A DNA stretch of 59,386 bases, filler included. It is 5 parts of 5 records of this genome, joined end to end, with 100 filler letters (N's around TTAATTAATTAA, not from the genome) between each part and the next. Parts side by side here need not be neighbours in the genome. Positions count along the whole stretch, not along the records: positions 32,313 to 50,783 come from SRR2962707_1813; 4 more parts are not named here. One strand, 5' to 3'. Below are positions 24,553 through 49,056 of this stretch, piece by piece. Positions within the stretch are counted from its first letter, which is position 1. The number at the start of each line of letters is the position of its first letter. The notes under the pieces were generated by a model. It saw only the letters and a list, made by a program, of their open reading frames with translations, was not told the DNA's origin and ran no database searches. The translations under genes and the position numbers were made by a program.

Positions 24553-24608
24553 AGTCACCTCGAAAACCATTGTATTAATAAAACTTATTTATATTTTGCA
24601 AAACTCGC

Positions 24609-26859
24609 TCAACACTTGTATGGGTAGTTCCAGAGACTTGCGGTGAAACCTAAATTTTGAGCTGCAGCCTGCATGGAAAGTGGCAGGTCGGCAAAGCACT
24701 CGTTCACCGACGGTGGGGTGCCACCAGAATTCCACATCGATGACGTGTATCCCAACGTCGTCCAGTACGTCTGCCAATCGCAGCCAAAAAATTGCGCAAG
24801 CAACATTACTCATCAGCCCGCAAACTGGGAATGAAAAATGTGAGTCACTGCAGGAACAACGTGGTGCTTCTACCTTTTGAGATGAGCTGAGAGCGCTCCA
24901 AGTGTACGAAGTATCGTCCCAGCAGATGCGTTTGGTGCTGTCGGTGGGCACAGTGGGACAATCATCACACGCTGGCGTCAGAGAGTAATATCTATGGCAG
25001 AAAAAACATACAACGCACACACCCTTTTAAACTACAAAACATGTGCGAACAAAGGTTGGCTTGCAAAGAGACCCAAAGAGGCTCAATCGCTTTTTGGTCA
25101 AGAGCTGCACTGGACACTTACGTCGAACAATACTCCCCCGGGCGATAGCCGGTGACATATTGACGGCCACCGTTCTTGGACGCCAAGACCGCGACAGCAA
25201 TGATGGTTGCAAGGACTACGACAAACACAATCACGGAGACAACTCCGACACACGTGCGGCGAGTGTTGTCTTCAAGTGACGAAGTACTGCGAACAGTAAC
25301 CTCAACAACACCGACGGATATTTGAAATGAGGCCTCCTCAAGGGAAGAGTAGAAATCAAAGCCCTCAGGGCTTGACCACGCTTTTGAATCGTCCGGGGTG
25401 GTGCCAGTGGGAGGAACCAACTGTGCATTTGCGTGTTTAGGAATTGCAGCAAAAAATGGGATACGTCGGAAACAACCGATACGCACACACACATACATAC
25501 ATGCATACATTCATACAACATGCATGGCATATATACATCATGCATACGCCACTTCCAGTATTACCCTACAACCATGCTTGACCACAACATGGGCGAAAAA
25601 TGGTGACGACTTGCCTGCTGTGCCAATGGGATCGTCGCATCGTCGGGCACAACGACTTCCAGCGCCTCTCCAGCCGCGACACCCTCAGGTACACGGACTT
25701 GCAGCGCTTCGACTGAGCCAGTAATATCAGTGCCGACGTCAAAAGTGTCACCGGCATTGCAGCCGTCAGGAACAGTCACCACCACCACTCGGGGTGACAC
25801 CGTCACCTCCTGACCAAGGAACTGCTCGTGCTCCCAACGTGGTCCCTTGCCTTCGGCACCGACCTGGAGGGCCATACAAATGAGGTCAACACCGCAAACG
25901 CCGCCAAAATAAGGAATGCACACTATTTGTTACCAACAAAACCGATCATCACCAACCCCAAGCCGTTGTTCGCCACAGATTCGTACCTGCACCATGTCAA
26001 TGGTGAACGTAGAATCGACTACCGTCGCATCATTCTGGGTGCGCAGGGCTAGTGCAGCTTCTCCCCACGATTCGAGTGCGTCCACCACATGCTTCAGTGT
26101 CAAGGCAGATGTGGCTGGAATGTGCACAATGACATTGTCCGGGTTGCCCTGGTCTGCCAATACCGTCAGATACGCGTCTTGCCCTGGGATAAACGCGGCG
26201 GCGTCCGGCACTCCGTCTCCATCCGTATCAATGGAAGGCGCGGGATCCGTCGAACCTGGGGTTGCAAACAGATTCACCAACACATCCACACGGTCCGTGG
26301 ACGCAGGAACGGTCGCAGGAGGGATCATCAGCTCCACAGGAACATTCGACCCGGCATTCGCCGGGGCTGCAACAAGGTACTTCCGCGTGTCGCCCGGCGG
26401 GGTGAACTGGAAAACCTGGCCTGGCGCCACGTTCGGCGGCAAGAACGCAACAGACGCTGCGAACGGCACCAATGTCACGGTCAGGGTCCGCGGCTGCACC
26501 GTCGGGTCTGCCTGCAGACTCGCAAACTCTGCCCGGAAGGCGGCTGTCTCGTAGAATGGAAGTGGCGCGTACAGACCCAGACCCAGACCCAGACCCGGGG
26601 GTCCCCAGAAGTGCCTGATGCGGCGGCCGCGAAAGTACGTGCGGAACAGCGTGTGCCGATGCATTCTTCGGTTCGCAAGGCGCGCTCGAAAGCCCACTCG
26701 GTGGAAGCCCATGCGCACGCGCCGAAAGCCGCCGCCTCCCCCGAGGCGTGAACTTGTTAAAAGTTCTCGATGACGTGGGCCAAACGCGCGGCCCCCTCCT
26801 CCTCCTCCCATTCGTCGAAACCCGCCTCCTCCGATCCGGCCCATGGTTGGCACTCCCAA
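24609..26859 (-). CDS. Eukaryotic multi-exon single-pass membrane protein of unknown function
   Basis: Exons about 26859-25987, 25863-25615, 25420-25121 and two more ending YPYKC*. Gly/Arg-rich N-terminus, VTVPDG..AGD/VRVPEG..AGE repeats, TM segment VGVVSVIVFVVVLATIIAVAVLA, C-terminal LGYT...W/LGFT...W repeats. Confidence 0.6.
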
Positions 26860-26884
26860 ACAACAACAACAACAACAACAACAA
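26859..26884 (+). repeat. (CAA)n microsatellite at contig end
   Basis: aacaacaacaacaacaacaacaacaa runs into the spacer. Confidence 0.9.
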
Positions 26885-26984
26885 NNNNNNNNNNNNNNNN
26901 NNNNNNNNNNNNNNNNNNNNNNNNNNNNTTAATTAATTAANNNNNNNNNNNNNNNNNNNNNNNNNNNNNNNNNNNNNNNNNNNN
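26885..26984. other. Artificial contig-joining spacer
   Basis: N-run with TTAATTAATTAA. Confidence 0.98.
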
Positions 26985-27539
26985 AGTGAGTGTGAGTGAG
27001 AGTGAGAGTGAGTGCGCTGTGTGCGCAGACTTTCGTTGGTGAGAGCCCTAATAAATCCTTGTAGTGTTGACAGGAAATAGTCAAGTTGACTCGGAAGTTA
27101 CCCCAGCACATTGTGCAAAACCCGTTTTTATTTCGCGTATTAAGCCTGAGTCGCTTTTTTTTCAGGATCTGAAAGTGGTGAACGTCTGTCAGCCAACCCA
27201 CGTCACGCCGGCGTAGTCGGACGCCAGTCCAGTGTGTGTGGGTGCGGTAGTACACACATGCACTACGCTCATGGAACAGGCGCTGCTACGTGATGAGCAT
27301 AAACAGCTCAATTCACTTCTGAGTTGACCGTTTTTATTGGTCTTGAAATATTCTTCTGAAAAGCACCCTATACTGACCCCCAACGTTGGTAAACGACCTT
27401 TTTGTAAATTCAGACGCTCGCGAACCACAATCGATGTTCTGTATTTTCATTGGATGGTGGTTTTCCATGGCCAATGAAAATCGAAGAAAATGGTTGGCGT
27501 GTTGTCTGTGTTTTCATTGGTTTACATGGACCACCCATT

Positions 27540-30500
27540 TTATTGACCAATCAGCAACGAGTATCGGGTGCCACAAGAAGAAACAGCCACAAAGCCACAA
27601 GCGCAGAAGAGCCCAAAAAGCGCTAGGGATACAGTTTCAGCCACAGAAAAGGCGTCAGGCGTCTTGTTAGCATGCTTTGATTGACAGGCACGCACAGCAT
27701 TACTATGTTTGAACGACGGGGGCGGACTGTCAAAACTATACGGTGAAAGACACAGTTTGGAGCCTGATTGACACCTTCTGGAGCCATTCAATAAACCAGT
27801 CGGGAGTGTTACAATGTTCACGAGAGGGGGGCGTAGTTGTAGCATCCGCTTCCCGATAGATCGACTGTGCGGATCTCAACTCTTCGAAAAAGCACCATAA
27901 CCTGTGCATGTGGCATCGCCATTTTTTTCGAACGCCAGCACACCACCCGGGCTGTAGAAATTGAAGTCAAGCCCAACGAAGACTTCCATACACCACACGT
28001 GACATGCATCACATAACATAAATACACATAACATACATCACTTCCAAACAATTATGCTGAGTTCAATGACCTTATTTATTTATATTCCGTTCCCGGCTTC
28101 ACACAGGGTGCACGCCAAACTACAACTTCCGCTTCACTCCTAATGGTTCGCTGGGCGCGCCAAAAGCACTCCATCCACCATTTCCAGCGTGATCCTGGTT
28201 GCTTCTCGCCCTCACGCGAAAGCGATACTTCCGCGATGGCTCCAGCTGCGTGGAAAACCATGTGAGGGCAAGAGATTGCGGATAATTTTCAGGAACGTCA
28301 ATATTGCCTTGGTCAACCCACTCCTCTTCCTCACGGTCCACGTCCCGATCGCCACTCTTGGCATCTTCAAGTAAACTCTGAATATTGTACGACTCGATCC
28401 GGTACGGTGCTGTCAAAATGCGGCTGGGATCCCACGACACTGCAATTTTCGTGAACGTGTGGGAAGCAGTCTGATGCGTAAGATGGGGCCGATCGGCAAC
28501 GAAGCACGCCAAGAATGCGAAAAGATTACTAAACGTGTGTCTGGAAAGGCATGAACAGACAGTATGTGGGAGCTAAAATACAATGAAGATCCACACCTGA
28601 TGAAACCGAAACACTGGCAATGGTTCAGCATCGGCAGTTGATGACTGGTAAGGTACCCCTGCAAATAGATAGGGCAACAAAGTACATACAGTCAGATCAA
28701 CCGTCCTGACAGAAAAAAAAAAGCAACATGAGTCTGCAGCATGGCGGTGTGCTGACATCGCACCTGGTGGAGCAATTGCTGCTGTGCGCACAACGGCAGA
28801 TTGAACGCCAACGTCGCCCCAGCCAACACGATTGTGAGCAGAAACCCGAAACTTGTAATCTGTCAGAAAATCAAGACCAAGGACCTACAAACAAGGCCCA
28901 ACTCAGCCACCGACAAGGCTCTCAAATCCCACGACATGTGTTTCATAAGTACTTACTTCATAATGCCTTGCTCTGTGTGAAATGTCATCGTCAACTACCT
29001 GCCAATTCTGGCGTGGCAGTGCATCGACCGGCGCATCGGTACGATCCGGCAGCTTACAACCAAGCACATAAGCAGAAGTAATAAGTCGGCTGGGAGGTGA
29101 AAAGCATGCATCACAGGCACAATCCCAAACAGCCTTCCAAGCCGCAAATCAAACATTCCGAACAGGGTACCTGGTAATCAGGCGGTGCATGCTGCATGTC
29201 TGGGGACTCAAGGTCAAACCCGCGGCGGTCAGGCTGCTCTTCTTCAGGTTGAATCTGCATTTCGAGCTACATAAAACGAACATCAAAGAACTGTTTCAGA
29301 ACTCACGCCACGCAAAACTGGGGCACTGTCAAGTAAGATACAAAAAACATCATGCTGCGCCAACTCGACTTGCCTGATACGAGTCGATGTAAGCCCCATT
29401 CTCTAAAGGTTCCTGCCACCCAACGACAACTTTGTTGTAGTCAATGTGCAGCACAATCGGGGGTGCCATGCGATCTGGGAAAGTCTTTGGCAAGGCCACG
29501 ATCTCAGACGCAATCCCATCAGACCATTCCGCCCACCCAAAGTCGGGGTGGAATGATCGGCAGCGAAAGAGGTAGTCCTGTGCAATCCCATGCCCCGGAA
29601 AAAAATGAATCCATCATTCGGCAAAAAAAAACAATTCCGGTGGTGTACCGGTACTGTGCTACTCACCTCATTGGGCTGAAGTACTGGACGCGCTTCATCG
29701 CCCGGGTGAAAACCAGCAGAACTTGTGCCCGGGGGGGGGACATGGCCCTCAGCCACAAATACTTCACAATTAATGGAGTCCGACAAGCTGATCCAATACC
29801 TTCAACCACGGTACATGGAATGCATTTTGCGGTGGTTCAATGCGAAGAACAACCATATTGGTTGCACAAAGAACTTCCAACGATTCATACACACTTCTGA
29901 GGGATCGTGATGGGGTCAATCTCATCCTTTAGGGAGTAAAACAGTCCTGGCACATCCCGTAGCCGTGCAACTTCCACCTGTCAGTAATGCAAGCGTTGGT
30001 CATTGCAGCACACCGGTGCTGGCCACCGCTAGTCGCCCCAACATTAAAGCAACACACTGCACACGACATTCAAAAAAAAATATCCACACCTGGAAGCGAA
30101 AAATCAACTTGTCGGTCCGAGCCTTTCCCCACGACATTGTCACAGATCGCGGAGTGCAAGAAACTATTGTAATCGCCTTGTACGTCCAAATTTCTTCACT
30201 CTCGACGCTGTAATCACCCCAGCCCGCTCGATTTCGAGCGCGAACCCGAAAAATATGGCAGTCTCCTGCGGTCAGTTTAAACAACTTCAAGTCCGTTTCG
30301 AGCACCAGCTTGTACGACTTCCATTCTTGGCTGTGGCATGCCCGCGACGTGGGACCACGTTTCATCTGGATCTCGTACTGCAGCACAGGGGCTCCATTCA
30401 GCACGGGTTCATACCTTTTGATCACACAAGGTCAGCAATCCAAGCTTGACCGATAACAGTTCCTAAGACGACAAAAACTCAACATTTTTAACGGTGGAGA

Positions 30501-31954
30501 AAGTGCGCAAAGATGCACGCACCATCGCAACGCCACAGTACTTGGAGTAGTTGTGATGCTAAAGGGCGCGGGATCTGGTGCTTCTGGCGGTGCAATGGGT
30601 GAAGTGTAAATGAGTGTGGACGTCCAAGGACTCCAGCCAATAAGGTTTCGGCCTCGAGTACGCAGAAGATACCTGCATAAATCACATCCATACCATCCAC
30701 GCATATTTTACGAAGTCACATCCAACAAGCAAACCTCGGGCAAAACTCGCTTCGGGGACAGATTCTCGGACACACGCACGTCTGCGCTGGCAGCAGCCCA
30801 GTTCCATCATCGTTCCACACAAGTTGCACTGAGAAATACTGCTGGTATCTAGACCCCCACGCGTTGCCGCGTGGCAGCGGAAGAAGACATTCACGAATGC
30901 ACACAGAAATTAATCACACATCCGCACTAGCCCTGGCGCTAACACATATGCAGTCAACTTTTGACTCTGGCGCTGTGCGTGATACCCTTGAAAAAGGCTC
31001 AACTTACATTGCATCTTCAGCTGGAACCTGAATCACCTGCCAATCTTTCGCTTCTCGGATATGAGGAGCAGCACGCTCGTCGTCGCATGGCTCTCGCATC
31101 CGCCACACAAACTCATATTCCAAAACTGGAACTCGATCCTGGGGATCGGCGATGGACTTGAAGAATGTAAACGTGATGCACTTTTCCGAAAGCCACTGGG
31201 TGCTATCAACGGTGAGGTTTCCCGGGGGAGTAGGCGGGTCGTAAAACATCACCTGCAAGACACACACAAAGCCACAACGTGGAGGTTGAAACCCATGCTG
31301 CTGAGCAGGGCACAAGAAAAAACGGAGCAGGGTAAACGATTGCTCATTGGTTGCACAGACCTCCGCATCCCATTTCTGCATCTGTCGAGCGTAGTCCAAA
31401 GGCGTTTTGTTGGCAGAATTGATAGGGTCGCGCAAGGCCTCGCACTTCTTCAGCAAGTACTCAGCAATATCCGCTCGCCCCGCGAGCGCGGCAAAGTGCA
31501 GCGGAGTGTCCAACGACGTTTCTGGTTTCTCCACCAGGACCCCAACAGGCCGTCTCTGCGTCCCGCCGCGACTACCACCGCCACCAACATTCGAGCTTTT
31601 CCGTGCAAAGTTCTTGCGTTTGTCCAAAACCCGTGGGATGTTTACGTCCGCTCCTGCCTCCACCAATAACTGCACCATGCCCATGTGGCCCTGGTCGACA
31701 GCGCCGTGTAACGCCGAGTACCCGAGCACGGGGTGCAGTGAATTGACCTCCTGACCTTTGTCCAGCAACAGCCGCACGGTCTGCGCGTCGTTTCGAATAG
31801 CAGCCTCCACCAGTCGACTCGCACTCAAGTGCTGCGGGACAGTGCGAGGGTCAACAACGACGAGGTTTCGCTCTGCCTCCTCTTTCGCAGCCTTCTGCTG
31901 CGCGAGCTTCCAGCTTCTGCGAAGTGCGTTCGTCATGGCTAATGTCTTGTGCAC
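27540..31954 (-). CDS. Eukaryotic multi-exon ankyrin-repeat + fibronectin type III domain protein (ends approximate)
   Basis: Ankyrin repeats (GYSALHGAVDQGHMGMVQLLVEAGADVN, DTPLHFAALAGRADIAEYLL, KTPLDYA) at 31400-31800. FN3 signatures RTRGRNLIGWSPW (~30640), FRVRARNRAGWGDYS (~30230) and YRFRVRAR...GWSAF (~28200). Pieces separated by GT-AG intron-like gaps. Confidence 0.65.
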
Positions 31955-32212
31955 CGCGATGAGTGAGTCACATACATCACAGTTGACACTTCATTCGGTG
32001 CCTCCTGGTTCTTCAGGTTTTCAGTTTTCAAGTCCAGCCAGACATTCGTCGACACATCACACAGGCAGCTTATTAAGATTCGAACACCCACCGCCGCAGC
32101 AGTTCCTTTGGTTTTTTTTTCGAAAAAACGAAGGAGCATAGTGAGTGAGAGTGAGAAAGTATCGAGAGAGGGGGAAGGGGGGGGAGGGGGGGAGTGAGTG
32201 AGAGAGAGAGGG

Positions 32213-32312
32213 NNNNNNNNNNNNNNNNNNNNNNNNNNNNNNNNNNNNNNNNNNNNTTAATTAATTAANNNNNNNNNNNNNNNNNNNNNNNNNNNNNNNN
32301 NNNNNNNNNNNN
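32213..32312. other. Artificial contig-joining spacer
   Basis: N-run with TTAATTAATTAA; preceded by GA/G-rich simple repeat. Confidence 0.98.
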
Positions 32313-32341
32313 CGTGAGTTCGAATCTCATCGCCCGCTCCA
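32313..32341 (+). tRNA. 3' fragment of tRNA-Gly (T-arm, acceptor strand, CCA); may be an att-site copy
   Basis: GTGAG-TTCGAAT-CTCAT T-stem/loop, CGCCCGC acceptor strand, discriminator T, then CCA. U73 with a GCG-start acceptor is typical of bacterial tRNA-Gly; anticodon not in window. Confidence 0.8.
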
Positions 32342-32608
32342 ATAAAAGTCTAACACTGAGAAAGCTGCTTCCGTGCGGCGCAGACTGTAGGCCTCTTAAA
32401 ACGAGCAGGGCGGCCCGTGCGGCGTTGCGCCTCGTTGAGAATCAACACGCGCACCCTATTTCTAGAGTCAAGGTTTTTTGTAGCCAGCAGTCAGGTTGTG
32501 TGCATAAATAGCTCGTAGTCTTTGTCTTAACTCTTTGATTCTATGAATAGTTTTGTGGCTTTGGCGGGGCGTAGGGCGCTAAAGACGAATCTTTACAAGG
32601 AGTTGGAT

Positions 32609-32830
32609 GTGAGTGATTCTCGGAAATCTAAGGCCTATGGGGGGAGAATGACTTCACAGCGATTCGGGGACTTGATCCCTAATGTGGTTTTGTCAGCATC
32701 GACTTCTGACTCCACACCGCTGCCTGGCGCTGACTGGCAAGTTTCAGACGAGACGGTCCAAGCTATTGAGGACGTCGAGCGGATTTGCCGCTTTGCTGAA
32801 CCGCAAAGTGGGCGGCTGGTATTCGGCTGA
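32609..32830 (+). CDS. Small hypothetical protein (73 aa from GTG 32609; alternative ATG 32648)
   Basis: AAGGAG at 32597-32602, 6 nt before an in-frame GTG; co-oriented with and 39-78 nt upstream of the large islet ORF. Confidence 0.5.
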   Translation: MSDSRKSKAYGGRMTSQRFGDLIPNVVLSASTSDSTPLPGADWQVSDETVQAIEDVERICRFAEPQSGRLVFG

Positions 32831-32908
32831 AACACACTATCTGTACCCGAAGAATAAGTTTGACCCATTGTGCGCAGTCATTGGCCTGCGCCGAATATTG
32901 TCAATTTA

Positions 32909-34540
32909 ATGGAAATAACTCATTTCAAGTTATCTCTGGATGACGAGAAAACTTGGCAAGAATTGGAACTTCAACTCGCGAACGGTGGGCACCAACCCGT
33001 CACGAAAAAAATAGTCGAACAGCTTAAGGGGTTGGGTGCGACCTCGATCGTTGTAGAAAGCGAGTATTTTGATAGAGACTTCTCAGAAGCATATTCAGCT
33101 TTTTATTCAACAATATTTCGACGCCATCCAAAGGCATGTAGACGGTTCCATTTTTTTAGCGCCGATCTGACCGCTCTATTTCAACATTCCGAAGCTCCGG
33201 CGATTTTAGCGACGCGCATGCAGGAGGCGGCGCCTGCATATCTGGGATATTTAGTGCAACGGCCTTTGAGGCACGCTCCTATTGGTGTGGCGGTCCTCAA
33301 GCTTCCGTACGCCTTGGATCATTTGGAGCCGCACCTGCTGGTACGGTCAACGTATAAAACGCATCTTCTTGGTGCGGAGTTCACCGTTGTGGGTATTCCA
33401 TTTACCCAACAAGATTCGCGGGTGGGAGCATGCGCTCAAGCAACGATCTGGATGGCAGGCAGGCATTTTCATACGAAACATGCTGGTCCGTGGATATCGA
33501 CCGTTGGAATAACCGAGGCCGCGACAGAAGTTTCTCAAATTGCTTTGAACTTATCTCTTCCAGCTGGTTCTGAGTTCCTCACGCTTGATAATATGGCGAC
33601 GGCTCTGCGGGCTATGGGTCGCCAAGTTCGATTTTATCAAGGCGTTTGGAGCGACGAACAAAAGTGTTTCGACTGGGGAAACATTCGCCCTTACGATGAA
33701 ATCAACAGATATGTGGACTCTGGAATTCCAGTAATTCTCGGACTCGCGCAAGCTCCGACCGGAATTGGACATGCCATGTTGGCAACCGGTCATGTTTTAA
33801 AAACTTTAGATGTCTCCCAAGGACTTCCTCAGAGACCTACTCGTGCAGAGTTTTGTGAATCCTTCTTGGTCAACGATGATCAACGTGGTCCGAATTTGCA
33901 ATTTCCTATAAAGGACGGAATTGCAGGAGACATCGATGATTTCTCGTTTGCGAAACATCTTGCGTATCTCATCGTACCCCTTCCGTCGAAGGTATATCTT
34001 CCCGGAGAGGCGGCAGAGAAGTTGGCGTGGGATTTACTGTCCAATTATCGCAAAGACTGGGATGCTTTGAAAAAGTCCCACCAAAAGGAATTAGAAGGCT
34101 CTATCGAGTTAGCTGAGAATTTCTGCAACAGTATGGACTGTGGCGTGGTAGTGGCACGCACGTATCTTACATACGGTTGGAAACACAAACATCGAATGCT
34201 TCGCAATCGACTGGACGATAACTTCAAGGCGTTATTGTTGACACATGATTTGCCGAAATATGTCTGGGTCACTGAGTTCGGAACGCTTGATTCGCTGAAT
34301 ACACCTAACCCCACGGATCGCAAAATATTTGCTCATACAGTAGTTGATGCTACTGCTAGCCAATATTGGGATTCTTGGAATATGCTCTATGCGCCTGGAT
34401 TTGGAATGGCATTTGCGCACTCTGCTTCGGTGCCATTTGCGCCATTCGAGCGCCGTGCCGTTCTTATTCCAAATGCTTCATCATATTTCCCCAAGATACG
34501 TGGTGAGATGGACTTTGCTCGATTTGGATACACGATCTAG
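32909..34540 (+). CDS. Uncharacterised protein with papain-like (C39-like) cysteine peptidase core
   Basis: Ordered motifs QQD..VGACAQA.IW (oxyanion Gln, Cys), SGIPVILG...GHAM.ATG (His), FLVNDD (Asp); extra N- and C-terminal domains; start ATG 32909 or GTG 32870. Confidence 0.6.
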   Translation: MEITHFKLSLDDEKTWQELELQLANGGHQPVTKKIVEQLKGLGATSIVVESEYFDRDFSEAYSAFYSTIFRRHPKACRRFHFFSADLTALFQHSEAPAILATRMQEAAPAYLGYLVQRPLRHAPIGVAVLKLPYALDHLEPHLLVRSTYKTHLLGAEFTVVGIPFTQQDSRVGACAQATIWMAGRHFHTKHAGPWISTVGITEAATEVSQIALNLSLPAGSEFLTLDNMATALRAMGRQVRFYQGVWSDEQKCFDWGNIRPYDEINRYVDSGIPVILGLAQAPTGIGHAMLATGHVLKTLDVSQGLPQRPTRAEFCESFLVNDDQRGPNLQFPIKDGIAGDIDDFSFAKHLAYLIVPLPSKVYLPGEAAEKLAWDLLSNYRKDWDALKKSHQKELEGSIELAENFCNSMDCGVVVARTYLTYGWKHKHRMLRNRLDDNFKALLLTHDLPKYVWVTEFGTLDSLNTPNPTDRKIFAHTVVDATASQYWDSWNMLYAPGFGMAFAHSASVPFAPFERRAVLIPNASSYFPKIRGEMDFARFGYTI

Positions 34541-34590
34541 CGCCTCTAAATCCTTTGGCGTGATGTTTTCAAATCCCTTGGTATCTTTAA

Positions 34591-35079
34591 ATGAATAGTA
34601 TATGCCCCTGCAGTTCCGGGCTCGACTTTGCGAGCTGCTGCGAGCCTTACCTCACAGGCGCGAAACTGCCGCCCGCGCCGGAAGCGCTGATGCGCTCGCG
34701 GTACTCGGCCTTCGCGACCGGCAATATTCCCTATCTGGAAGAAACGCTGCTGCCCGGCACGCGCGACGATTTCGATGCCAAGGGCGCGGCGGAGTGGGCG
34801 GCGGCCAGCGAATGGACGGGGCTCGAAGTGCGCCACACCGAAGGTGGCGGACCCGGCGAAACGGAAGGCGTCGTCGAATTCGTTGCGCATTACCGGCAGG
34901 CGGGCGCGGAGCGCATCCATCACGAGACGGCGACCTTCACGCACAAGGACGGGCGCTGGTGGTACACCGACGGGATCATGGGCGTGAAGCCGCGCCGCGC
35001 CGAAAAGATCGGCCGCAACGATCCCTGCTCCTGCGGTTCCGGCAAGAAATACAAGAAGTGCTGCGGCGCCGCTGCCTGA
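34591..35079 (+). CDS. ychJ: YchJ family protein with SEC-C motifs
   Basis: N-terminal CPC.SG...[27 protein letters not shown]-terminal [18 protein letters not shown]. Confidence 0.9.
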
Positions 35080-35190
35080 GTTCCCTCGCCTGAGTTCCAT
35101 GCACCTGCGCATGCTTCCCTGATCCTGCCATTCATGCTCCACTGCGGCCCGCCGCTCGGCAAGAGAGCGTGTTTCGGGGGAGGGTTTCGA

Positions 35191-36666
35191 GTGGTGGATG
35201 CTGTCGGGAAAGGTCCGGTCAATGAGCCGGTCCGCGTGCAGGTGCCGGGACAGGCGAGCACGCAACTTCTCTCCGCCACGGGCGATGCGGCCGCCGACGC
35301 GAAGGGCCAGATGAGCTGGGCGCTCTTCGAATGGGCGCGCAATCCATACGTCATCCTCATCACCATCTATATCTTCTCGCCTTACTTCACGAGCACGGTG
35401 GTCGGCGATCCCGTCCGCGGCCAGGCGATCTGGGGCAACATCAACGGCATCGCCGGTTTCTTCATTGCGTGTCTCGGGCCTGTGCTCGGTGCGATCGCGG
35501 ACACGGGCGGCAAGCGCAAACCGTGGATCGTGTTCTTCGTCGCGCTGATGGTGCCCGCCATGTTCGCGCTCTGGTGGGCGATGCCGGGGGAGGGCGGGTT
35601 GTCGATCCTCTCCATTGCGGCGCTGATCGTGCTGATAGCGGTCGCGTTTGAATTCTCCGCCGTGTTTCACAATTCGATGCTGCCCGCTGTCGCGCCGCAT
35701 GAGCGGATCGGATTTCTCTCCGGTCTCGGGCTCGCGCTCGGCAATGCGGGCGCGCTGCTCATTCTCTGTTTCATGCTCTGGGCCTTCATGCTGCCGGGCG
35801 CCGTGCCGTGGAGCTTCGTGCCGGACGCACCGCTGTTCGGCATCGATGCGGGCGCGAATGAAAACAGCCGTATCTCCGGGCCCATCGTCGCGGTCTGGCT
35901 GCTCGTCTTCTCGCTGCCGCTGCTTTTGTGGACGCCGGATGTGAAGGGTGCAAACGTGCCGGTGACTGTCGCGATACGGCGCGGCCTCGGCTCGGTCGTC
36001 GGCACGGTCAGGAAGCTGAAGCACTACCGCAACATCGCGATCTATCTCGCCGCGCGCATGTTCTACAATGACGGCAAGACGGCGGTGCTCGTTTTCGGCG
36101 GCGTCTATGCGGCGGGCGTCTTCGGCTGGAATGCGCTGACGCTGACAATCTACGGCATCGTGCTTTCCGTCTTCGCGGTCGGCGGCGGCTTTTTCGGCGG
36201 CTGGCTCGACGACAGGTTCGGCTCGAAGCGCGCGATCCTCGTTTCCATCGGCGGCACCTGTGTCGGGCTCATCCTCGCGATCTCGATGACGCCGACAGAA
36301 ATCTTCTTCCTGCCCTATGACGCGGCTTCCGCTGAACCGGTCTGGGATCTGCCCTTCTTCGCGACGCTGCCGGAACTCATGTATCTGATCGTGGTGCTGA
36401 TCGTCGCGATCTGCATCACGGCCGCCTATGCCAACAGCCGCACCATGCTGGCGCGCATTGCGCCTGCATCGAAGATGTCGGAGTTCTTCGGCATCTATGC
36501 GCTGTCGGGTACGGCGACGGCGTTTCTCGGGCCGCTGCTTGTCGGCTATGCGACGTGGCTCTTCCAGAGCCAGCGCATCGGCTTTGCGTCGATTCTTCTG
36601 CTTCTCGGCATCGGCCTTGCCGGTATGCTGTTCGTGAAGGAAGAACGCGCGGAGGCGGTCGATTGA
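35191..36666 (+). CDS. MFS transporter (UMF1/ATG22-like)
   Basis: SWALFEWA, P.LGAIAD..GKRKPW, NSMLP, GFLSGLG, RMFYNDG, SRTMLARIAP...EFFG.YAL.G. Confidence 0.88.
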   Translation: MVDAVGKGPVNEPVRVQVPGQASTQLLSATGDAAADAKGQMSWALFEWARNPYVILITIYIFSPYFTSTVVGDPVRGQAIWGNINGIAGFFIACLGPVLGAIADTGGKRKPWIVFFVALMVPAMFALWWAMPGEGGLSILSIAALIVLIAVAFEFSAVFHNSMLPAVAPHERIGFLSGLGLALGNAGALLILCFMLWAFMLPGAVPWSFVPDAPLFGIDAGANENSRISGPIVAVWLLVFSLPLLLWTPDVKGANVPVTVAIRRGLGSVVGTVRKLKHYRNIAIYLAARMFYNDGKTAVLVFGGVYAAGVFGWNALTLTIYGIVLSVFAVGGGFFGGWLDDRFGSKRAILVSIGGTCVGLILAISMTPTEIFFLPYDAASAEPVWDLPFFATLPELMYLIVVLIVAICITAAYANSRTMLARIAPASKMSEFFGIYALSGTATAFLGPLLVGYATWLFQSQRIGFASILLLLGIGLAGMLFVKEERAEAVD

Positions 36667-36668
36667 GC

Positions 36669-38087
36669 ATGGTGGTGGAAGGGGCGGTGCCGGAGATGCA
36701 GCCGCCGCAGGGCGACCATGACGGCGAGCCTGCGTCGAATGTCGCGCAGGGCGCGTGGGTGCTCTACGAGTGGGCCAACCAGACCTATTTCTCGCTCATC
36801 ACGATCTTTCTGTTTCCGCCCTTCTTCACGCAAGTGCTGGCCGCGAACCCGATCGAGGGTCAGGCCTATTGGGGCTATGTGCAGGCGACTGCGGGCATCA
36901 CCATTGCGCTTCTCAGTCCACTGCTCGGGGCGATGGCGGATGCGGCCGGGCCGCGCAAGCCGTGGATCGTGTTCACGACGCTGCTCTGCGCGGCGGGCTG
37001 CTTCTCGCTCTGGTTTGCGGTGCCGGGGCAGCCGCTGCTGCCGGTTGCGATCTCGCTTGTCGTCGCTGCCGTCGGCATGGAATTCACGATCATCTTCGCG
37101 AACGCGATGCTGCCGACCATAGCGTCGGACCGGCGCATCGGGCTTCTGTCCGGCATCGGCATCGGTGTCGGCCAACTTGCCGCCATCGTTGCGCTGGTTC
37201 TCGTGCTGCTCTTGCTGCAACTGCCGGGCGAAGTCAGCGCCTCCTTCATTCCCGATGCGCCGCTGTTCGGCCTCTCGAAAGAGGCTTACGAAACCGACCG
37301 CATCGTCGGGCCGATTTCCGGGCTCTGGTTCATGGTCTTCATGCTGCCGCTCCTGCTCTTCGTGCCGGACCAGAAGGGGAAGGGGCTTGGGCGGCGCGAA
37401 GCAGCGCGCCAGGGGCTTCTCCGTCTCGTCAAGACGATCCGCTCGGCGGGGCATTTCCGCAATGTCGCGATCTATCTCGTCTCGCGGATGCTTTTTTATG
37501 ACGGCATGACGGCGATCTTCGTTTTCGGCGGCATTCTGGCGGCGTCCATCTTCGGCTGGGGCGCGATGGAGATGGCGGTCTATGGCATCTGGGTGACGTT
37601 GTTCGCGGCGTTCGGCGCCTTTGTCGGCGGCTGGGCGGATTTGAAGCTCGGCTCCAAGCGCACGCTGGTCTGGTCGCTTCTCGGCGTCCTCGCGACGTTC
37701 ATCGTGCTGCTCTCCTTCGACCGCGACATGATCTTCTATGTGATCGAGGTGGAGGTGGCCGCCGATGCGGGCGCGTTCACGACGCTGCCGCAGCAGCTCT
37801 TCCTGCTCACCGTCGGCCTGTTCGGCATGTCGGTCGGGCCGGTCATCGCGTCGAGCCGCACCATGATGGCGCGCATTTCGCCGAAGGAAATGATGACGGA
37901 GTTCTTCGGCCTCTTCGCGCTTGTCGGCAAGGCGACGGCCTGGATCGCGCCGCTGTTCATCGGCATCGTGACGGAAGTCACGCAGAACCAGCGCTACGGC
38001 CTGATGGTCACCGTGCCGCTGATCGTGATCGGCCTGATCGGACTTCTTTTCGTGAAGGAAGAACGGGCTTCGGCGGTTGTCCACTAG
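36669..38087 (+). CDS. MFS transporter (UMF1/ATG22-like), tandem paralogue
   Basis: AWVLYEWA, PLLGAMADAAGPRKPW, NAMLP, RMLFYDG, SRTMMARISP...EFFGLFAL.G; starts 2 nt after upstream stop. Confidence 0.88.
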   Translation: MVVEGAVPEMQPPQGDHDGEPASNVAQGAWVLYEWANQTYFSLITIFLFPPFFTQVLAANPIEGQAYWGYVQATAGITIALLSPLLGAMADAAGPRKPWIVFTTLLCAAGCFSLWFAVPGQPLLPVAISLVVAAVGMEFTIIFANAMLPTIASDRRIGLLSGIGIGVGQLAAIVALVLVLLLLQLPGEVSASFIPDAPLFGLSKEAYETDRIVGPISGLWFMVFMLPLLLFVPDQKGKGLGRREAARQGLLRLVKTIRSAGHFRNVAIYLVSRMLFYDGMTAIFVFGGILAASIFGWGAMEMAVYGIWVTLFAAFGAFVGGWADLKLGSKRTLVWSLLGVLATFIVLLSFDRDMIFYVIEVEVAADAGAFTTLPQQLFLLTVGLFGMSVGPVIASSRTMMARISPKEMMTEFFGLFALVGKATAWIAPLFIGIVTEVTQNQRYGLMVTVPLIVIGLIGLLFVKEERASAVVH

Positions 38088-38158
38088 CGCGTTGCGCTTT
38101 CGGGCGCGCCCGTTTATCCACTAAGGTTCATCTTTCGCGCATCGAGGGGCACGCGCTC

Positions 38159-38842
38159 ATGGCCAAGAAGTCCTTTTCCGAACGGCTCGTCCGCCGCTTC
38201 TACTACAAATATTTCGCGCGCAACCTGCTCTATGAATTGCAGATGCGGGCGCGCACGCAATCGGCGGATTATGCCGAGAAGCATATGGCCGAGGCCGTCA
38301 TATTCGAAGACGCGGCCAAGATGCTGAAATACTGCGTGCGCAAGGCGCCTGCCGGTGCGGTGCTTGAATTCGGCGTCGCCGATGGCGGCTCGATCGCCGA
38401 GATCGCGTCGGTGTGCAAGGGCACGGTGCATGGCTTCGACAGTTTCGAGGGCTTGCCGGAAGACTGGGCCGGACACACGGAAGCAGCTGGCACGTTCGAC
38501 CGCGGCGGATCGCTCCCCAAGGTGCCGAAGAATGTCGAGCTTCACAAAGGCTGGTTCTCGGACACGATCCCGCCCTGGAAGGCGCGCCACGCCGATCCGG
38601 TCGGCTTCCTGCACATGGATTGCGACATCTATTCATCGACGCGCGATGTGCTGGCGCTGATGAAGGACCGGCTGCGCGTCGGCACGATCATCAAGTTCGA
38701 CGAGTATTTCAATTACCCGAACTGGCAGCGCCACGAGTACCGCGCGTGGAAGGAATTCGTCGCCGAGCATAGCGTCGAATACCGCTATATCGCCTTCACC
38801 GCGCTGCATGGCCGCGTCGCGGTCGAGATCACGAAAATCTGA
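38159..38842 (+). CDS. Class I SAM-dependent methyltransferase (TylF/MycF-like)
   Basis: LEFGV..GGS, GFDSFEGLPEDW, KGWFSDT, LHMDCDIYSST, FDEY. Confidence 0.8.
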   Translation: MAKKSFSERLVRRFYYKYFARNLLYELQMRARTQSADYAEKHMAEAVIFEDAAKMLKYCVRKAPAGAVLEFGVADGGSIAEIASVCKGTVHGFDSFEGLPEDWAGHTEAAGTFDRGGSLPKVPKNVELHKGWFSDTIPPWKARHADPVGFLHMDCDIYSSTRDVLALMKDRLRVGTIIKFDEYFNYPNWQRHEYRAWKEFVAEHSVEYRYIAFTALHGRVAVEITKI

Positions 38843-38848
38843 GGCGGT

Positions 38849-39169
38849 TCAGCCGAGTTTGACGGCGGTGCCGGACGCGATGCAGATCAGCATGGAGCCA
38901 CCTTTTCCGGCGACTTCGTAGTCGAGATCGATGCCGACGACCGCATCGGCGCCGAGGCGCTCTGCCTCCTCGACCATGTCGCGCATCGCCCCGTCGCGGG
39001 CCGACTTCAGCACCTTCTCGTAGGCACCGGAGCGCCCGCCCACGAAGTCGCGGATCGAGGCGAAAACGTCGCGAAAGACATTGGCGCCGATCACGGCCTG
39101 GCCGGAGACGACGGCCTTGTATTCGGCGATCTTGCGGCCTTCGACCGAATTCGTTGTTGTAACGATCAT
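38849..39169 (-). CDS. YbjQ/UPF0145 family protein
   Basis: [52 protein letters not shown]. Confidence 0.92.
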
Positions 39170-39188
39170 CCCGTTCTCCCTCCGAGGA

Positions 39189-40802
39189 TCAGTGCCGGAA
39201 GTGGCGCATGCCCGTCATGACCATGGCGAGGCCTTTTTCGTCGGCCGCCGCGATCACTTCGTCGTCGCGCATGGAGCCGCCCGGCTGGATCACCGCTGTC
39301 GCGCCCGCTTCCGCCGCCGAGAGCAAGCCATCGGCGAAGGGGAAGAAGGCGTCCGACGCGACGACCGAGCCGATCGTGGCCGGCGTCTTCTCGCCCGCGG
39401 CTTCGGCGGCATCCTGCGCCTTGCGGGCGGCGATGCGCGCCGAATCCACGCGGCTCATCTGGCCCGCGCCGATGCCGACGGTCGCGCCGTTCTTCACATA
39501 GATGATCGCGTTCGACTTCACATGCTTGCAGACACGGAAGGCGAATTTGAGATCGGCCATTTCCTGCGCGCTCGGCGCGCGCTTCGTCACGACCTTGAGG
39601 TCGAGCGTGTCGATGCGGCCATTGTCGCGCGACTGCACCAGCATGCCGCCCGCAACCGCCTTGAAGTTGAGGCCCGGCGCGCCCGCATCGGGCAGCCCAT
39701 GGGTGATCAGCAAGCGGAGGTTTTTCTTCTGGCCGATGATGCGGCGCGCGTCTTCGTCGGCGTCCGGCGCGATGATGACTTCGGTGAAGATGCGCGCGAT
39801 CTCTTCCGCCGTCTCGCCATCGAGCGTTCGGTTCGCGGCGATGATGCCGCCGAAAGCCGAAACCGGGTCGCAGGCAAGCGCCTTGCGGTAGGCGTCGGCC
39901 AGCGTGTCGCCGGTTGCGACGCCGCAGGGGTTCGCGTGCTTGATGATCGCGATCGCGGGAGCGAGCTTCGGATCGAACTCGCCTGCGAGCTCGAAGGCCG
40001 CGTCCGTATCGTTGATGTTGTTGTAGGAGAGCTCCTTGCCCTGAAGCTGCTCGGCATTCGAGACGCCGGGGCGATGTTCGCCCGTCACGTAGAAGCTCGC
40101 AATCTGATGCGGGTTCTCGCCGTAGCGCAGCGTCTGCTTCAGGCTGCCGCCAAAGGCGCGGTAGTCCGGCGCCGCTTCGCCGATGGCATCGGCCATCCAG
40201 TTCGAGATCGCGGCATCGTAGGCCGCCGTGCGGGCATAGGCTTTCTGCGCGAGTTTCGTGCGGAGCGCGAGCGAGGTGCCGTTCTTCGTCTTCAATTCGT
40301 CGAGCACCGCGCCGTAGTCCGCCGCGTCCACGACGACTGCCACATAGGCATGGTTCTTCGCCGCGCCGCGTATCATCGCGGGGCCGCCGATATCGATGTT
40401 CTCCACGCAGTCGTCATAGCCCGCGCCCTTCGCGACCGTTTCCTCGAAGGGGTAGAGGTTCACCACCAGAAGGTCGATGTTGCCGATGCCGTGTTCCTTC
40501 ATCGAGGCGGTGTGGGCCGCGTCGTCGCGCACGGCCAGCAATCCGCCATGGACCTTCGGGTGCAGCGTCTTCACGCGCCCGTCCATCATTTCGGGGAAGC
40601 CTGTCAGGTCTGACACGTCCTTCACCGGCAGCGCCGCATCCTTGATCGCCTTGGCCGTACCGCCGGTCGAAACGAGTTCGACGCCTGCCTCGTGCAGCGC
40701 ACGGGCGAAATCGGCGAGGCCGGTTTTGTCGGAAACGGAAAGGAGCGCGCGGCGGACGCGCTGGATGTCGGCGGCTTGCGGGTTCGGTTTCGCGGTCGGC
40801 AT
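39189..40802 (-). CDS. purH: Bifunctional AICAR transformylase / IMP cyclohydrolase
   Basis: [64 protein letters not shown]. Confidence 0.97.
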
Positions 40803-40965
40803 GGGGCGGGGCTCCGGGGCGCGGGGAGGGATGGCCGGGGCGATAGCATGAAACGGGCAGGGGGCCAAGGCGGCGCGCGCGTCTTACCCCGCAGGTAATC
40901 GAAATAGCGGCGCGACGCCGCTAGGCTGCCGCCCCTGAACCCCGAAAACCGCAGGATTCCGCCTC

Positions 40966-41373
40966 ATGAGCCAGACTCCCGATATTTCCTACCTTCCCTT
41001 CGCCAATCTCCTCGGTATCGAGCTCACGGAGGCCAGTCCCGACCGGGTGGTGGCGACGCTTACTGTCCGCAAGGAGCTCTGCACGATCCCGGACATCCTG
41101 CATGGCGGGGCTATCATGTCCTTTGCGGACACGGTGGGGGCGGTTGCCACTGTTCTCAACCTCAAGGACGGGGCGACAACCACGACGGTCGAGAGCAAGA
41201 CCAATTTCCTCGCGCCGGTGCCGCTCGGCGACGTTGCGACGGCGACCTGCGAACCCTTCCACAAGGGCGGGCGGCTGATGGTCTGGCAGACGAAGATCAC
41301 GCGGAACGATGGACGGCTTTGCGCCGTGGTGACGCAGAGCCAGATGGTGCTGGAGCCGAAGAAGAAGGACTAG
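40966..41373 (+). CDS. PaaI family thioesterase
   Basis: LHGGAIMSFADT, TT.ESKTNFL, H.GGR..VWQT hotdog motifs. Confidence 0.9.
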   Translation: MSQTPDISYLPFANLLGIELTEASPDRVVATLTVRKELCTIPDILHGGAIMSFADTVGAVATVLNLKDGATTTTVESKTNFLAPVPLGDVATATCEPFHKGGRLMVWQTKITRNDGRLCAVVTQSQMVLEPKKKD

Positions 41374-43268
41374 CGTTCTTCCGGCAGGCCGAGATCGAGA
41401 TCGGGCAACTCCGGCAATTCCGCGTCTTCGCGCTTCGGATGGCCCGCATTGCGTGTCGAGAGCCTGCGCCAGGCCCAGTTGACGCGTGCCTCGCCCCGGA
41501 AGACGCGGCCTGCGACGACGATCTGCTCGGCGCGCCGTGTCGCGTCACCGGAGCCGAGATAGACGCTTTCCTCAATGGCGATTTCGCATTCGCCGCCGCC
41601 GGAGCGCGCGCGGAATTGCCAGCCGTCGCCGTTTGGCAGCATCACCAGCACGTTCATGCGGTCATGGGCGAGCGAGATGCGGGCATCCGGGTGGATGTGG
41701 AAGCGGATTGCGAAATCCGGGTCTTGCGGCGGCTTGTGCCAGTAACGCCGCTGCCAGGGCCGCGCGCGGAGCGGGCGGGGCGCCGTTTCGAGCATGTCCT
41801 CGCCGCGCAGGTCTTCGCCCGTCGCCGAAAGGAAGAAGCGGCGGCGATGGATGAGGTTGAAAAGCCCGACATAGCCGTCATGCGCCGTTTCGAGCCAGAC
41901 GCCTGCCTCGTTCTCATTGCGGCGGCTGTCGACCTCGACCGGGCCTTCCATCACGCGCCCGCCGAGCAGAAGCCGCGTGAGCTTGCCCTTCAGCATCCGC
42001 GCCGACGATGTATCGGCCAGCACCAGCGTCGAATGCGCCGCCGTCGCGCGGCTTGCGGCCTCCCAGTCGGGGCCGAGCACTTTCGTTGCGCCGCAATTCA
42101 CGATCATGCGGGCACGGCCCGCGCTCATCTCGAAGGCGAGGCAGCCCGCATGGGCCTCGTGACTGAAGGGGCCGGGCGGCGGCCTGCCGGTATCGACGAC
42201 GAGGCTCGCAGGGCCGGCGGCCAGGCGCTGATAGCCCGAATGCGGCGCGAAGCCGAAGGGCCGCCCCTTGGCGTCGTCGCGGTCGAAGACGGCGTCGATC
42301 GCGCCTTCCGGGCCTTCGGTCGAGCCGTTGAAGAGCGCCAGCTTGCCGTCGCCGTGCCGGAAGAAGCGCAGCATCGGCGTCATCCGGTCGATGGCGTCGC
42401 GCACGGGCTTCGGCACCTCGATGCGGCGCGTGGTCAGCGCATCGCGCAGCGAAATCAGGTCGAGCAGGATCGACAATTGCGCCGACGGGTTGCGGCTGAC
42501 ATGGCCGCCATCGGCAAGGATCTGCCGGTCGAGTTCGCGGCAGAGCAGCATCAACCCCTTTTTCAACCGCTTGTGGCCTTCGGACAGGCAGAGGCCGGAA
42601 AAGGCGAGGCCCATCGCCGCCGTGATGCGCGGTTCGCCCGCGGGCGCAATCGAGGCGACGCGGGCGAGGTGGCGCGCCTGACGCGCCATGTTGCGCAACA
42701 GCGTCGAGCGGTAGACGAGTTCGGTGCCGTCGATGATGAGCGCGCCGTTGGCGACCCATGAGGTGAGGCGCCGCCCGATCACCTGCGGACGCCACGCGAT
42801 GTCGTGCCAGTTGCCTTCGGTCTCGATCCAGTCGGCGACGAGCTTCTGCGCATAGCGCTGCGCCGTGTCGCCATTGTTCGCTTCGTGCGCCGCCGTGAAA
42901 TGGCGCAGCCATGAGAAGCCGTGGAGTTCTTCCGCCCATGTTTCGCTTGGCGGATCGGCGGCGAAGGGCGAGGAGCCGCCGGGCGCACGCACCTGTCCGC
43001 CGGGCAGGAACCATCTTCCCTGAAAGAGTGCGTCCGCCGCGCTGGCGCGGCCGGGGCGGAGTTCCGGCGGATAAAGCACCATGTGGTCGGGCATCGGCCC
43101 GCGCAAAGTCTGCCCGTAGGCCCATGTGTCGAAGGCGCGGGCGAGCCCCGCATCGCGCGTCCTGACCAATGCCGCGCCCGCAAGGTCGATGGCGCGGTTT
43201 CCCGACGGCGCGGCCATGCGTGCCATGGCGCCGCCGTTCCGTCCGGTTGTGGTTCGCGCTGCGGCCAT
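41370..43268 (-). CDS. Heparinase II/III family protein
   Basis: LHGFSWLRH, QILADGGHVSRNP, FFRHGDG.LALFNG, AHAGCLAFE, R.TAAHST, HDGY, FAIRFH; usual alphaproteobacterial position upstream of purH. Confidence 0.88.
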   Translation of the reverse strand: MAAARTTTGRNGGAMARMAAPSGNRAIDLAGAALVRTRDAGLARAFDTWAYGQTLRGPMPDHMVLYPPELRPGRASAADALFQGRWFLPGGQVRAPGGSSPFAADPPSETWAEELHGFSWLRHFTAAHEANNGDTAQRYAQKLVADWIETEGNWHDIAWRPQVIGRRLTSWVANGALIIDGTELVYRSTLLRNMARQARHLARVASIAPAGEPRITAAMGLAFSGLCLSEGHKRLKKGLMLLCRELDRQILADGGHVSRNPSAQLSILLDLISLRDALTTRRIEVPKPVRDAIDRMTPMLRFFRHGDGKLALFNGSTEGPEGAIDAVFDRDDAKGRPFGFAPHSGYQRLAAGPASLVVDTGRPPPGPFSHEAHAGCLAFEMSAGRARMIVNCGATKVLGPDWEAASRATAAHSTLVLADTSSARMLKGKLTRLLLGGRVMEGPVEVDSRRNENEAGVWLETAHDGYVGLFNLIHRRRFFLSATGEDLRGEDMLETAPRPLRARPWQRRYWHKPPQDPDFAIRFHIHPDARISLAHDRMNVLVMLPNGDGWQFRARSGGGECEIAIEESVYLGSGDATRRAEQIVVAGRVFRGEARVNWAWRRLSTRNAGHPKREDAELPELPDLDLGLPEER

Positions 43269-43302
43269 GTCCGCGGCCCTTCCGTTCACGCGCGTTCGCC
43301 CG

Positions 43303-44894: not shown

Positions 44895-44897
44895 GGT

Positions 44898-48275: not shown

Positions 48276-48288
48276 CGGCGTAATTTCG

Positions 48289-49053: not shown

Positions 49054-49056
49054 AGT

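Follow-up and report, generated by a model that had tools for sequence, protein, structure and literature searches.

What kind of system is formed by two genes, one for a small protein and one for a putative cysteine protease, when they are the only content of a short islet of foreign composition? The islet in question occupies positions 32313-34590 of a 59,386-nucleotide (nt) stretch of DNA joined from five contigs (the window), and a first-pass annotation made from the letters alone had taken it for a candidate new two-gene module, possibly anti-phage, toxin-antitoxin-like or peptide-processing. We find that the large gene encodes a cysteine peptidase of papain fold, cytoplasmic and with all its catalytic residues in place, and that the two genes form a conserved, mobile operon in which the small protein co-evolves with the large one. 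As to function, our preferred though tentative reading is that the protease is latent, plugged by its small partner, and that the pair acts as a conflict module of a toxin-antitoxin- or defence-like kind.

The large gene (32909..34540, plus strand, stop codon included) encodes 543 amino acids (aa) from ATG 32909; its open reading frame (ORF) spans 32870..34540 on the same strand and gives 556 aa if a GTG start is used. Three domains can be told apart in the product: an N-terminal alpha/beta domain (residues 1-165; 32909..33403), a papain-fold catalytic domain of clan CA, C39-like, with approximate borders at residues 166 and 360 (33404..33988), and a C-terminal domain of about residues 361-543 (33989..34537) that opens with a long helix at residues 366-390 in the secondary structure. 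The catalytic motifs are QQDSRVGAC, GIGHAM and VNDDQ, with Gln168 encoded at 33410, Cys175 at 33431, His288 at 33770, and Asp323 and Asp324 at 33875 and 33878, and the Cys, His and Asp codons are those singled out by the first-pass annotation. A simple hydropathy scan revealed no transmembrane (TM) segment (the highest Kyte-Doolittle mean over 19 residues was 1.29) and no signal-like N-terminus, and no ATP-binding cassette (ABC) or other domain was recognised by Pfam at E<=1, which bears out the earlier description of a protein devoid of signal peptide, TM segment and transporter domain. Likewise, NCBIfam and PADLOC gave nothing at E<=1 and the PDB sequences nothing at E<=10.

The family to which this protein belongs is large. 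Of 7997 candidates that were scored, 407 proved homologous at E<=1e-3, with 51% identity for the best match other than the protein itself, and among representative clusters at 50% identity 3387 matched at E<=1e-3 and 2272 at E<=1e-10. All named homologues are labelled "hypothetical", and in the ESM Atlas the clusters carry the label "hypothetical protein" and nothing else. Cys175, His288 and Asp324 are invariant both in alignment A1 (34 sequences, drawn from the 120 matches listed) and in alignment A4 (110 full-length representatives at 24-44% identity, drawn from the 150 listed), and Gln168 is at least 90% conserved in the latter. Conservation extends to the flanking domains, where Y53, D55, D57, C77, R79, R118 and P119 stand out in the N-terminal domain (alignments A1, A4 and A5), and E367, E370 and W374 in the helix at residues 366-390 of the C-terminal domain are invariant in A1.

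An AlphaFold2 model built from 34 sequences had a mean predicted local distance difference test score (pLDDT) of 88.5 and a predicted template modelling score of 0.90, and placed residue 175, the nucleophile, at the start of a helix. When this model was submitted to Foldseek, about 200 columns in the middle of the protein aligned to papain-fold peptidases, which made up nearly all top matches, with probabilities up to 1.00. Among them are staphopain (1pxv, the best PDB match, E 1.2e-3), the pseudomurein endoisopeptidase PeiR, AvrRpt2, the C39 domains of PCAT1 and ComA and phytochelatin synthase, but also the papain-fold proteases of ubiquitin-like type UfSP, ZUFSP, Josephin and BpJOS; the best BFVD match was an AvrRpt2-like protease (E 2.6e-5). 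Although the E-values are modest, model, matches and invariance in the 110 relatives together support the papain/C39-like fold with its Cys-His-Asp order that had been suggested from the sequence. The N-terminal domain, modelled with a pLDDT of 86.9, had no Foldseek match in PDB when folded alone (best E 0.63, probability at most 0.11). A PDB profile match to CroV588 (E 3.3e-7) was discarded as an artefact of ten weak repeat matches to a leucine-rich repeat protein.

The nearest described relative is Peptidase_C39_2 (PF13529), which has the same papain fold and the same order of Gln-Cys, His and Asp as the large protein. The window protein itself lies below the gathering threshold of PF13529 (24 bits), two distant relatives come close to it or pass it (L045 with 24.7 bits and L043 with 22.9 bits), and one among the 120 listed homologues carries the domain. 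In contrast to Peptidase_C39_2, the window protein is extended by two further conserved domains (about 165 and 180 residues), comes with an obligate small partner and shows no link to a transporter. We therefore place the catalytic domain in a remote C39-like branch of clan CA, near Peptidase_C39_2.

The small partner gene lies directly upstream on the same strand (32609..32830) and encodes 73 aa from GTG 32609 or 60 aa from ATG 32648, while its whole frame (32543..32830) yields 95 aa if counted from the first ATG. We regard GTG 32609, which is preceded by AAGGAG and a 6-nt spacer, as the best start. The protein has a variable N-terminus, a conserved helix at about residues 46-62 and a tail, G68-R-L-V-F-G73, which ends the protein; the part conserved among its homologues is this helix followed by the pattern AEQ+xGxhxhG.

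Is the small gene a regular companion of the large one? A tblastn search with the small ORF from the window gave matches directly upstream of the large gene in six loci (best E 2e-9), and an iterated profile found a homologue in this position in 34 of the 41 sources where the start of the large ORF could be called, ending 9-91 nt ahead of its first start codon. Of the seven misses, two are genes truncated at the 5' end, two fall at contig edges, two are relatives of only 23-24% identity and one is locus L035, in which a similar small-protein motif can be discerned by eye. As an independent test the same profile was run on 64 metagenome loci from a scan seeded with alignment A1, scoring those with the N-terminus present and at least 250 bp upstream. 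The partner was found in 43 of 44 loci at identities of at least 34% and in none of six at 23-31% (43/50 overall). A 52-60-aa ORF is also annotated upstream of the large gene in all three plasmid records inspected, and a database search with the partner alignment retrieved 64 proteins, mostly of 57-67 aa and all unnamed. It is clear from these results that both co-oriented ORFs described earlier, of 73 and 543 aa, have homologues in conserved synteny.

The extreme C-terminus of the partner is a conserved element. A glycine equivalent to G68 is present in at least 90% of the small proteins, a hydrophobic residue precedes the end, and the last residue is glycine in 20 of 27 and in 44 of 64 distinct sequences. 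Prediction of a complex between peptidase and partner gave scores of 0.79, 0.81 and 0.81, against 0.00 for the best of three controls, and together with the conserved upstream ORF this upholds the proposal of a two-gene system. The pair passes the mark set for such scores, which 51 of 78 solved complexes attain, as do 2 of 108 mismatched pairs; when neighbouring gene pairs are drawn blindly, 7 of 44 attain it. At least 65% of the contacts were common to the runs. On the peptidase the interface involves Q168 and residues 174-176, 179, 283-289 and 365-391, on the partner it involves residues 36-60 and 68-73, and the pairs with the lowest error join the partner helix (residues 40-57) to the C-domain helix at 365-383 and to residues 486-500. 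According to the model, the partner helix would thus dock on the C-domain helix 366-390, and the interface lists suggest that the tail, GRLVFG-COOH, may reach into the catalytic cleft, where its last residue would meet the nucleophile. As read from the same interface, the partner is predicted to fold as a helix and a tail, and not as a beta-grasp.

The genomic setting of the pair was examined next to its structure. The window consists of contigs at 1-20370, 20471-26884, 26985-32212, 32313-50783 and 50884-59386, separated by four N44-TTAATTAATTAA-N44 spacers at 20371-20470, 26885-26984, 32213-32312 and 50784-50883, so that the adjacency across 32213-32312 is artificial and the DNA before 32313 is not contiguous with the islet. 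The islet makes up the first 2.3 kb of the fourth contig, beginning at the first base after the spacer, and its GC content is 48.2% compared to 65.0% for the remainder of the contig, in agreement with the AT-richer 2.2 kb reported before. The large ORF has a GC fraction of 0.448 at third codon positions, where the two genes that follow it reach 0.80 and 0.83. The right border is found at 34541..34590, where the GC content climbs from about 0.45 to about 0.67 at the start of a YchJ/SEC-C gene. At the left end, the first bases of the contig hold a 29-nt fragment resembling the 3' end of tRNA-Gly(GCC) (32314..32342, plus strand), which covers the 3' half of the T-arm, the 3' strand of the acceptor stem and CCA. 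The first-pass annotation was right about this tRNA-Gly 3' end, but it had overlooked the contig junction, and the window shows no whole tRNA: ARAGORN reported none in the window and Rfam no match at gathering level, because the remainder of the tRNA is missing from the contig. The fragment is identical at 22 of 24 nt to the tRNA-Gly(GCC) 3' ends of loci L004 and L032, and at 25 of 27 nt to an orphan 27-nt fragment in L002 (7446-7472) that has no tRNA body and lies 250 bp ahead of the small gene, a distance equal to that in the window. The L002 fragment looks like an attachment site (att) remnant left when a later element displaced the tRNA, and the fragment in the window may either be an orphan of the same sort or belong to an intact tRNA that was cut off by the assembly. 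No integrase ORF was found within 32313-34590 and no repeat of the tRNA end in the window (allowing up to three mismatches), including 32313-35200, and scans for promoters and terminators gave sites no more numerous than in shuffled sequences. The islet of the window thus combines two features of tRNA-integrated islands, adjacency to a tRNA 3' end and deviant composition, while the integrase and the far-border repeat are absent.

Among the relatives the association with tRNA genes is strong. After removal of 24 near-duplicates, 18 of 90 loci had a tRNA within 1.2 kb of the module, compared to 1.1 expected from the tRNA density of the farther flanks (Poisson 3e-16), and in 18 of 18 cases it is the 3' end of the tRNA that faces the module (p 4e-6). 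Eight tRNA species are involved, one case being a relative at 23% identity, and the gap between tRNA and module is mostly too small for another gene. In most relatives, as in the window, the pair is the sole content of the islet, and its GC content is mostly 8-17 points below that of the flanks. Repeats of the tRNA end near the module were absent from 8 of the 11 tRNA-adjacent loci scanned, whereas islands flanked by a repeated tRNA 3' end were seen in L016 (7433-14918, 7.5 kb) and L032 (217-10756, 10.4 kb), with the pair at the tRNA-proximal end, and L028 has a short tRNA-end match about 2.2 kb upstream of its tRNA. The L016 island also holds a REP_ORF2-G2P-like gene, and the L032 island an integrase plus a helix-turn-helix (HTH) gene adjoining the module. 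Tyrosine integrases are present in L008, L014 and L032, in the first two directly downstream of the module. Distribution is sparse: of 401 alphaproteobacterial species genomes 4 hold the module (2 of these being seeds), as do 4 of 72,556 plasmid records, and the pair is not typically borne by phages or plasmids. Collectively, the islet is a self-contained, horizontally acquired two-gene operon.

Neighbouring genes point in the same direction as the tRNA enrichment, and both agree with the link to mobile and defence loci that had been anticipated. A Pfam scan of 125 flank proteins from 33 of the 43 genome loci (ten near-duplicates or fragments dropped) gave a heterogeneous tally, with ThiF 5, integrases 3, AbiEii 2 and DUF6088 2, and the neighbours in relatives include tyrosine integrases, AbiEi/AbiEii, a CHAT protease, an HTH protein and operons resembling the ubiquitin-like Bub pathways. 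In L013 (2317-5539) the pair is followed on the same strand by genes for a CHAT-domain protease, a 253-aa protein without match and a lipase/esterase-like protein, which may be another conflict system.

On this basis we tentatively propose the following sequence of events. With its tail in the cleft and its last residue at the position of a cleavage product, the partner would hold the peptidase latent in the manner of an antitoxin or a guard. If the partner were lost or displaced, for instance by phage infection or by loss of the element, the peptidase would be freed and could cut proteins of the cell or of the invader. The pair would then be a conflict or addiction module carried in tRNA-associated islands, coupled in other lineages to a Bub-like conjugation operon, while the copy in the window would operate without one. 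A conflict or addiction role would explain both why the pair persists by itself in decayed tRNA islets, as an addictive module might, and why it is found in the company of integrases, AbiE, CHAT and ubiquitin-like systems.

Known systems offer partial parallels to this latent-protease proposal. Staphopain, the best PDB fold match, is represented there by its complex with staphostatin (1pxv), a cognate cytoplasmic inhibitor from the same operon, and the idea of a co-encoded small protein that fills the cleft is shared. Staphostatin occupies the protease cleft in the direction of a substrate with a glycine at P1; it is a beta-barrel of about 105-110 aa, and the staphopains are secreted pro-enzymes with the inhibitor gene downstream. 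Here, by contrast, the protease has no signal peptide, the partner gene is upstream, the partner is predicted to be a helix with a tail and its glycine is the last residue. The pair also resembles type II toxin-antitoxin systems in its adjacent, co-oriented genes, a small one upstream and a larger one downstream, which are conserved as a pair, and in its predicted binding, its mobile islands and its patchy distribution. Papain-fold protease toxins are not known in the classical type II families.

Several observations weigh against the proposal. Neither PADLOC nor NCBIfam has a model that matches the pair. Confidence in the partner is low within the predicted complex (pLDDT 52-54), and the interface was obtained as lists of residues without pairs for the tail, so that its position in the cleft is our interpretation. 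Many type II antitoxins have a DNA-binding domain, but Pfam recognises none in the partner. The terminal glycine is not universal, since some clades finish in R, K, S or A, and one clade, accounting for 13 of the 64 small proteins, carries a variable 4-residue extension past the conserved ...VVG (such as ANRG, GNHH, DGRR or TTER), which is more in keeping with a substrate that is processed than with a pure inhibitor. The large gene is truncated or broken beside tRNAs in L020, L034 and L037, showing that its loss is tolerated. Phage records gave no matches, and the 21 pattern matches in viral contigs included no relatives. Finally, the recurrent link to operons of a ubiquitin-like protein (Ubl) with E2 and E1, together with Foldseek matches of the deubiquitinase type, favours an alternative in which the pair serves a ubiquitin-like pathway.

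That link, of which the first-pass annotation made no mention, deserves a closer description. The Sphingopyxis large gene is convergent with an operon encoding Multi_ubiq (286 aa), an E2-like protein (194 aa) and ThiF (302 aa), the two overlapping at their ends, and AbiEi/AbiEii lie upstream. Multi_ubiq and ThiF were confirmed by Pfam in L022 and are annotated in two plasmid records, and the notion that ThiF beside the Sphingopyxis copies is a housekeeping gene was rejected in view of its operon partner Multi_ubiq. A Mesorhizobium plasmid and a Rhodothermales metagenome-assembled genome share the block [small, large][ThiF fusion, 130-aa gene, multiubiquitin] with E1 proteins that are 69% identical, and on a Pseudomonas plasmid multiubiquitin, ThiF and DUF6527 genes precede the small and the large gene on one strand, with HTH and ImmA/IrrE genes alongside. 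A ThiF homologue was found within 300 bp downstream in 20 of 81 loci (redundant, with an intact 3' end and at least 1.5 kb downstream), and a ThiF-family E1 within 1.5 kb in 12 of 44 scorable non-redundant loci, about a quarter. Two gene orders occur, either convergent with ends -41 to +89 bp apart or with the Bub genes upstream on the same strand. When 64 large proteins were placed on a maximum-likelihood tree, from which partial and identical rows and two near-identical ones were excluded, the relatives adjacent to Bub genes fall into at least four clades, and the branches starred for this adjacency force at least four changes (shuffled mean 10.8; 0 of 500 shuffles as low). One genome, G159, has two family members (L049 and L051), of which one converges on a ThiF gene and the more distant one is located 5.4 kb downstream of a DUF6527 match.

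The module is independent of Bub. No Bub genes were found beside the clade of the window (nearest rows L053, L029, L002 and L001), tblastn of the contig of the window gave no match to Ubl, E1/E2 or BubE, with flank Pfam matches to YchJ, a major facilitator superfamily (MFS) transporter and others, and four of five genomes with a stand-alone module have no match to Multi_ubiq or DUF6527 anywhere.

Type II Bub consists, according to a preprint (bioRxiv 10.1101/2024.11.21.623953), of BubA (Ubl), BubBD (E2-E1) and the serine protease BubE (DUF6527), with bubE present in all Bub operons, and, like our module, it is carried in elements at tRNA genes. In four genomes with a convergent cassette (G405-G408) no DUF6527 was found anywhere. 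Multi_ubiq-E2-E1 operons without a BubE match are situated at 6167-8764 in L022 and at equivalent positions in L028, L040 and L086, at 9583-11623 in L035 and at 5587-7759 in L046. Because DUF6527 is missing from the four genomes although the preprint assigns bubE to every Bub operon, these look like BubE-less relatives of type II Bub, with the papain-fold enzyme as the sole nearby peptidase.

Could the pair then be a tag and its peptidase? The small protein would be a modifier without a beta-grasp, or its pro-form, and the papain-fold enzyme would expose, recognise or remove the C-terminal glycine in processing or deconjugation, much as a deubiquitinase does; the enzyme would supply the peptidase missing from the BubE-less Multi_ubiq-E2-E1 cassettes, and the predicted complex would represent an enzyme-product state. 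We consider this the main rival to the latent-protease proposal, with a modest chance of being right. A peptidase that handles a C-terminal glycine is common to type II Bub and to the pair, and, beyond the adjacency to E1 genes in two orders, its repeated changes on the tree, the Pfam-confirmed cassettes and the lack of DUF6527 in G405-G408, the idea draws on the variable extensions of 13 of 64 partners, since Ubl precursors have these as well. UfSP, ZUFSP, Josephin and BpJOS are among the fold matches, and the short variable stretch after the glycine in one partner clade likewise recalls the Ufm1/UfSP, ZUFSP and Josephin systems. These fold matches have weak E-values (2e-2 to 2e-1), however, the partner is predicted not to be a beta-grasp, and most host genomes checked lack conjugation machinery of the Bub kind, as do the loci of the clade of the window. 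The described Bub peptidases are JAB and the Ser-His DUF6527, and Ubl, E1/E2 and BubE are all absent from the window; no mention of papain, cysteine protease or C39 was found in the accessible text of the two Bub preprints, including bioRxiv 10.1101/2024.11.21.623953. No ATP-dependent activating domain could be recognised in the large protein, which leaves a free C-terminal glycine without an evident route to conjugation. The BubA C-termini (RQGGSS, PTDKS and NDDNS) are unlike the partner tail, by which the idea that the tail mimics that of BubA was also rejected, and the small proteins of the L035 and L046 cassettes end in Arg.

We think it improbable that the pair is a regulatory protease with its substrate, comparable to CapP/CapH or ImmA/ImmR and controlling a neighbouring immune operon. 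Bub-like operons do adjoin the pair, HTH and ImmA/IrrE genes are found nearby, and protease and small-protein regulators of defence operons are known, as mentioned in bioRxiv 10.1101/2024.11.21.623953. Yet the pair stands alone in its islet in the window and in most relatives, the partner has no HTH or other Pfam domain, and what is conserved in it is the very C-terminal end, beyond which no primed side is left for cleavage.

Peptide maturation by a C39-type leader peptidase and a precursor peptide (a bacteriocin or a ribosomally synthesised and post-translationally modified peptide) is very improbable, despite C39 domains (PCAT1, ComA and LahT-type) among the fold matches and a glycine at the presumed P1: unlike the bacteriocin-processing C39 enzymes the large protein lacks an ABC or TM region, the islet holds no ABC transporter, TM segment or modification enzyme, and the partner, with its variable N-terminal part and a hydrophobic residue instead of glycine at P2, stops at its last glycine and hence has no core peptide, which speaks against the peptide processing raised in the first-pass annotation. 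Hardly any more credible is a decaying island remnant without present function, suggested by the missing integrase and att repeat and by the broken copies elsewhere, as both frames are intact, all conserved residues are present, and synteny and residue conservation are kept across 24-51% identity.

Some further features of the window lie outside the islet. The first gene past it is the YchJ/SEC-C gene (34591-35079), followed by an ATG22-like MFS transporter by Pfam; two such ORFs of 510 aa each are called just past the islet (35134-36666 and 36555-38087), and since the calls share about 110 nt, the second probably begins further downstream than called. The contig at 26985-32212, of about 50% GC, carries two minus-strand ORFs, one with ankyrin repeats (31004-31954; Ank_2 1.6e-16) and one weakly fn3-like (30000-30425), and terminates in a purine-rich GAGTGAGAG/G-run (32140-32212). 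In composition and content it is unlike the following contig of 65% GC, and it may come from another replicon or organism.

The first-pass annotation had not recognised the pair as a named system, and no match to one was found. Neither protein is covered by a curated family or defence model in Pfam, NCBIfam or PADLOC; in PADLOC-DB v2.0.0 (2023) no family matched either window protein at E<=1, or any of seven relatives at E<=0.1. Full-text literature searches, whose scope did not include a supplementary list of 544 Bub operons, returned no description of the pair, nor was it found in the accessible text of the two Bub preprints, of Iyer et al. 2006 (PMC1779556) and of a 2023 classification of papain-like proteins (PMC10318531). 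What is new here is the recurrent adjacency of the module to Multi_ubiq-E2-E1 (Bub-like) operons.

The family is large, with 3387 clusters, and still has no entry in a domain library, and its genomic behaviour is that of a conflict system: sparse, of foreign composition and anchored at tRNA 3' ends. The proposed placement of the partner C-terminus in the catalytic cleft is a structural hypothesis that can be tested. As a clan-CA peptidase with a putative cognate cleft-binding partner, the pair could realistically turn out to be central to something more novel. Rather unlikely, in our estimate, but of wider consequence is that it is the core of an undescribed protein-tagging or immune pathway, in which a helical protein of about 60 aa with an exposed or processed C-terminal glycine would be handled by a three-domain papain-fold enzyme, alone in most hosts and as the peptidase or effector arm of BubE-less cassettes in others. 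The authors of the Bub preprint state that they have not yet been able to find a phage-protection phenotype or targets (bioRxiv 10.1101/2024.11.21.623953). The neighbouring protease pair is a concrete candidate for the missing part of the BubE-less operons, and if the tagging or immune pathway were real it would open a way to the targets and the biological role of Bub-type pathways.

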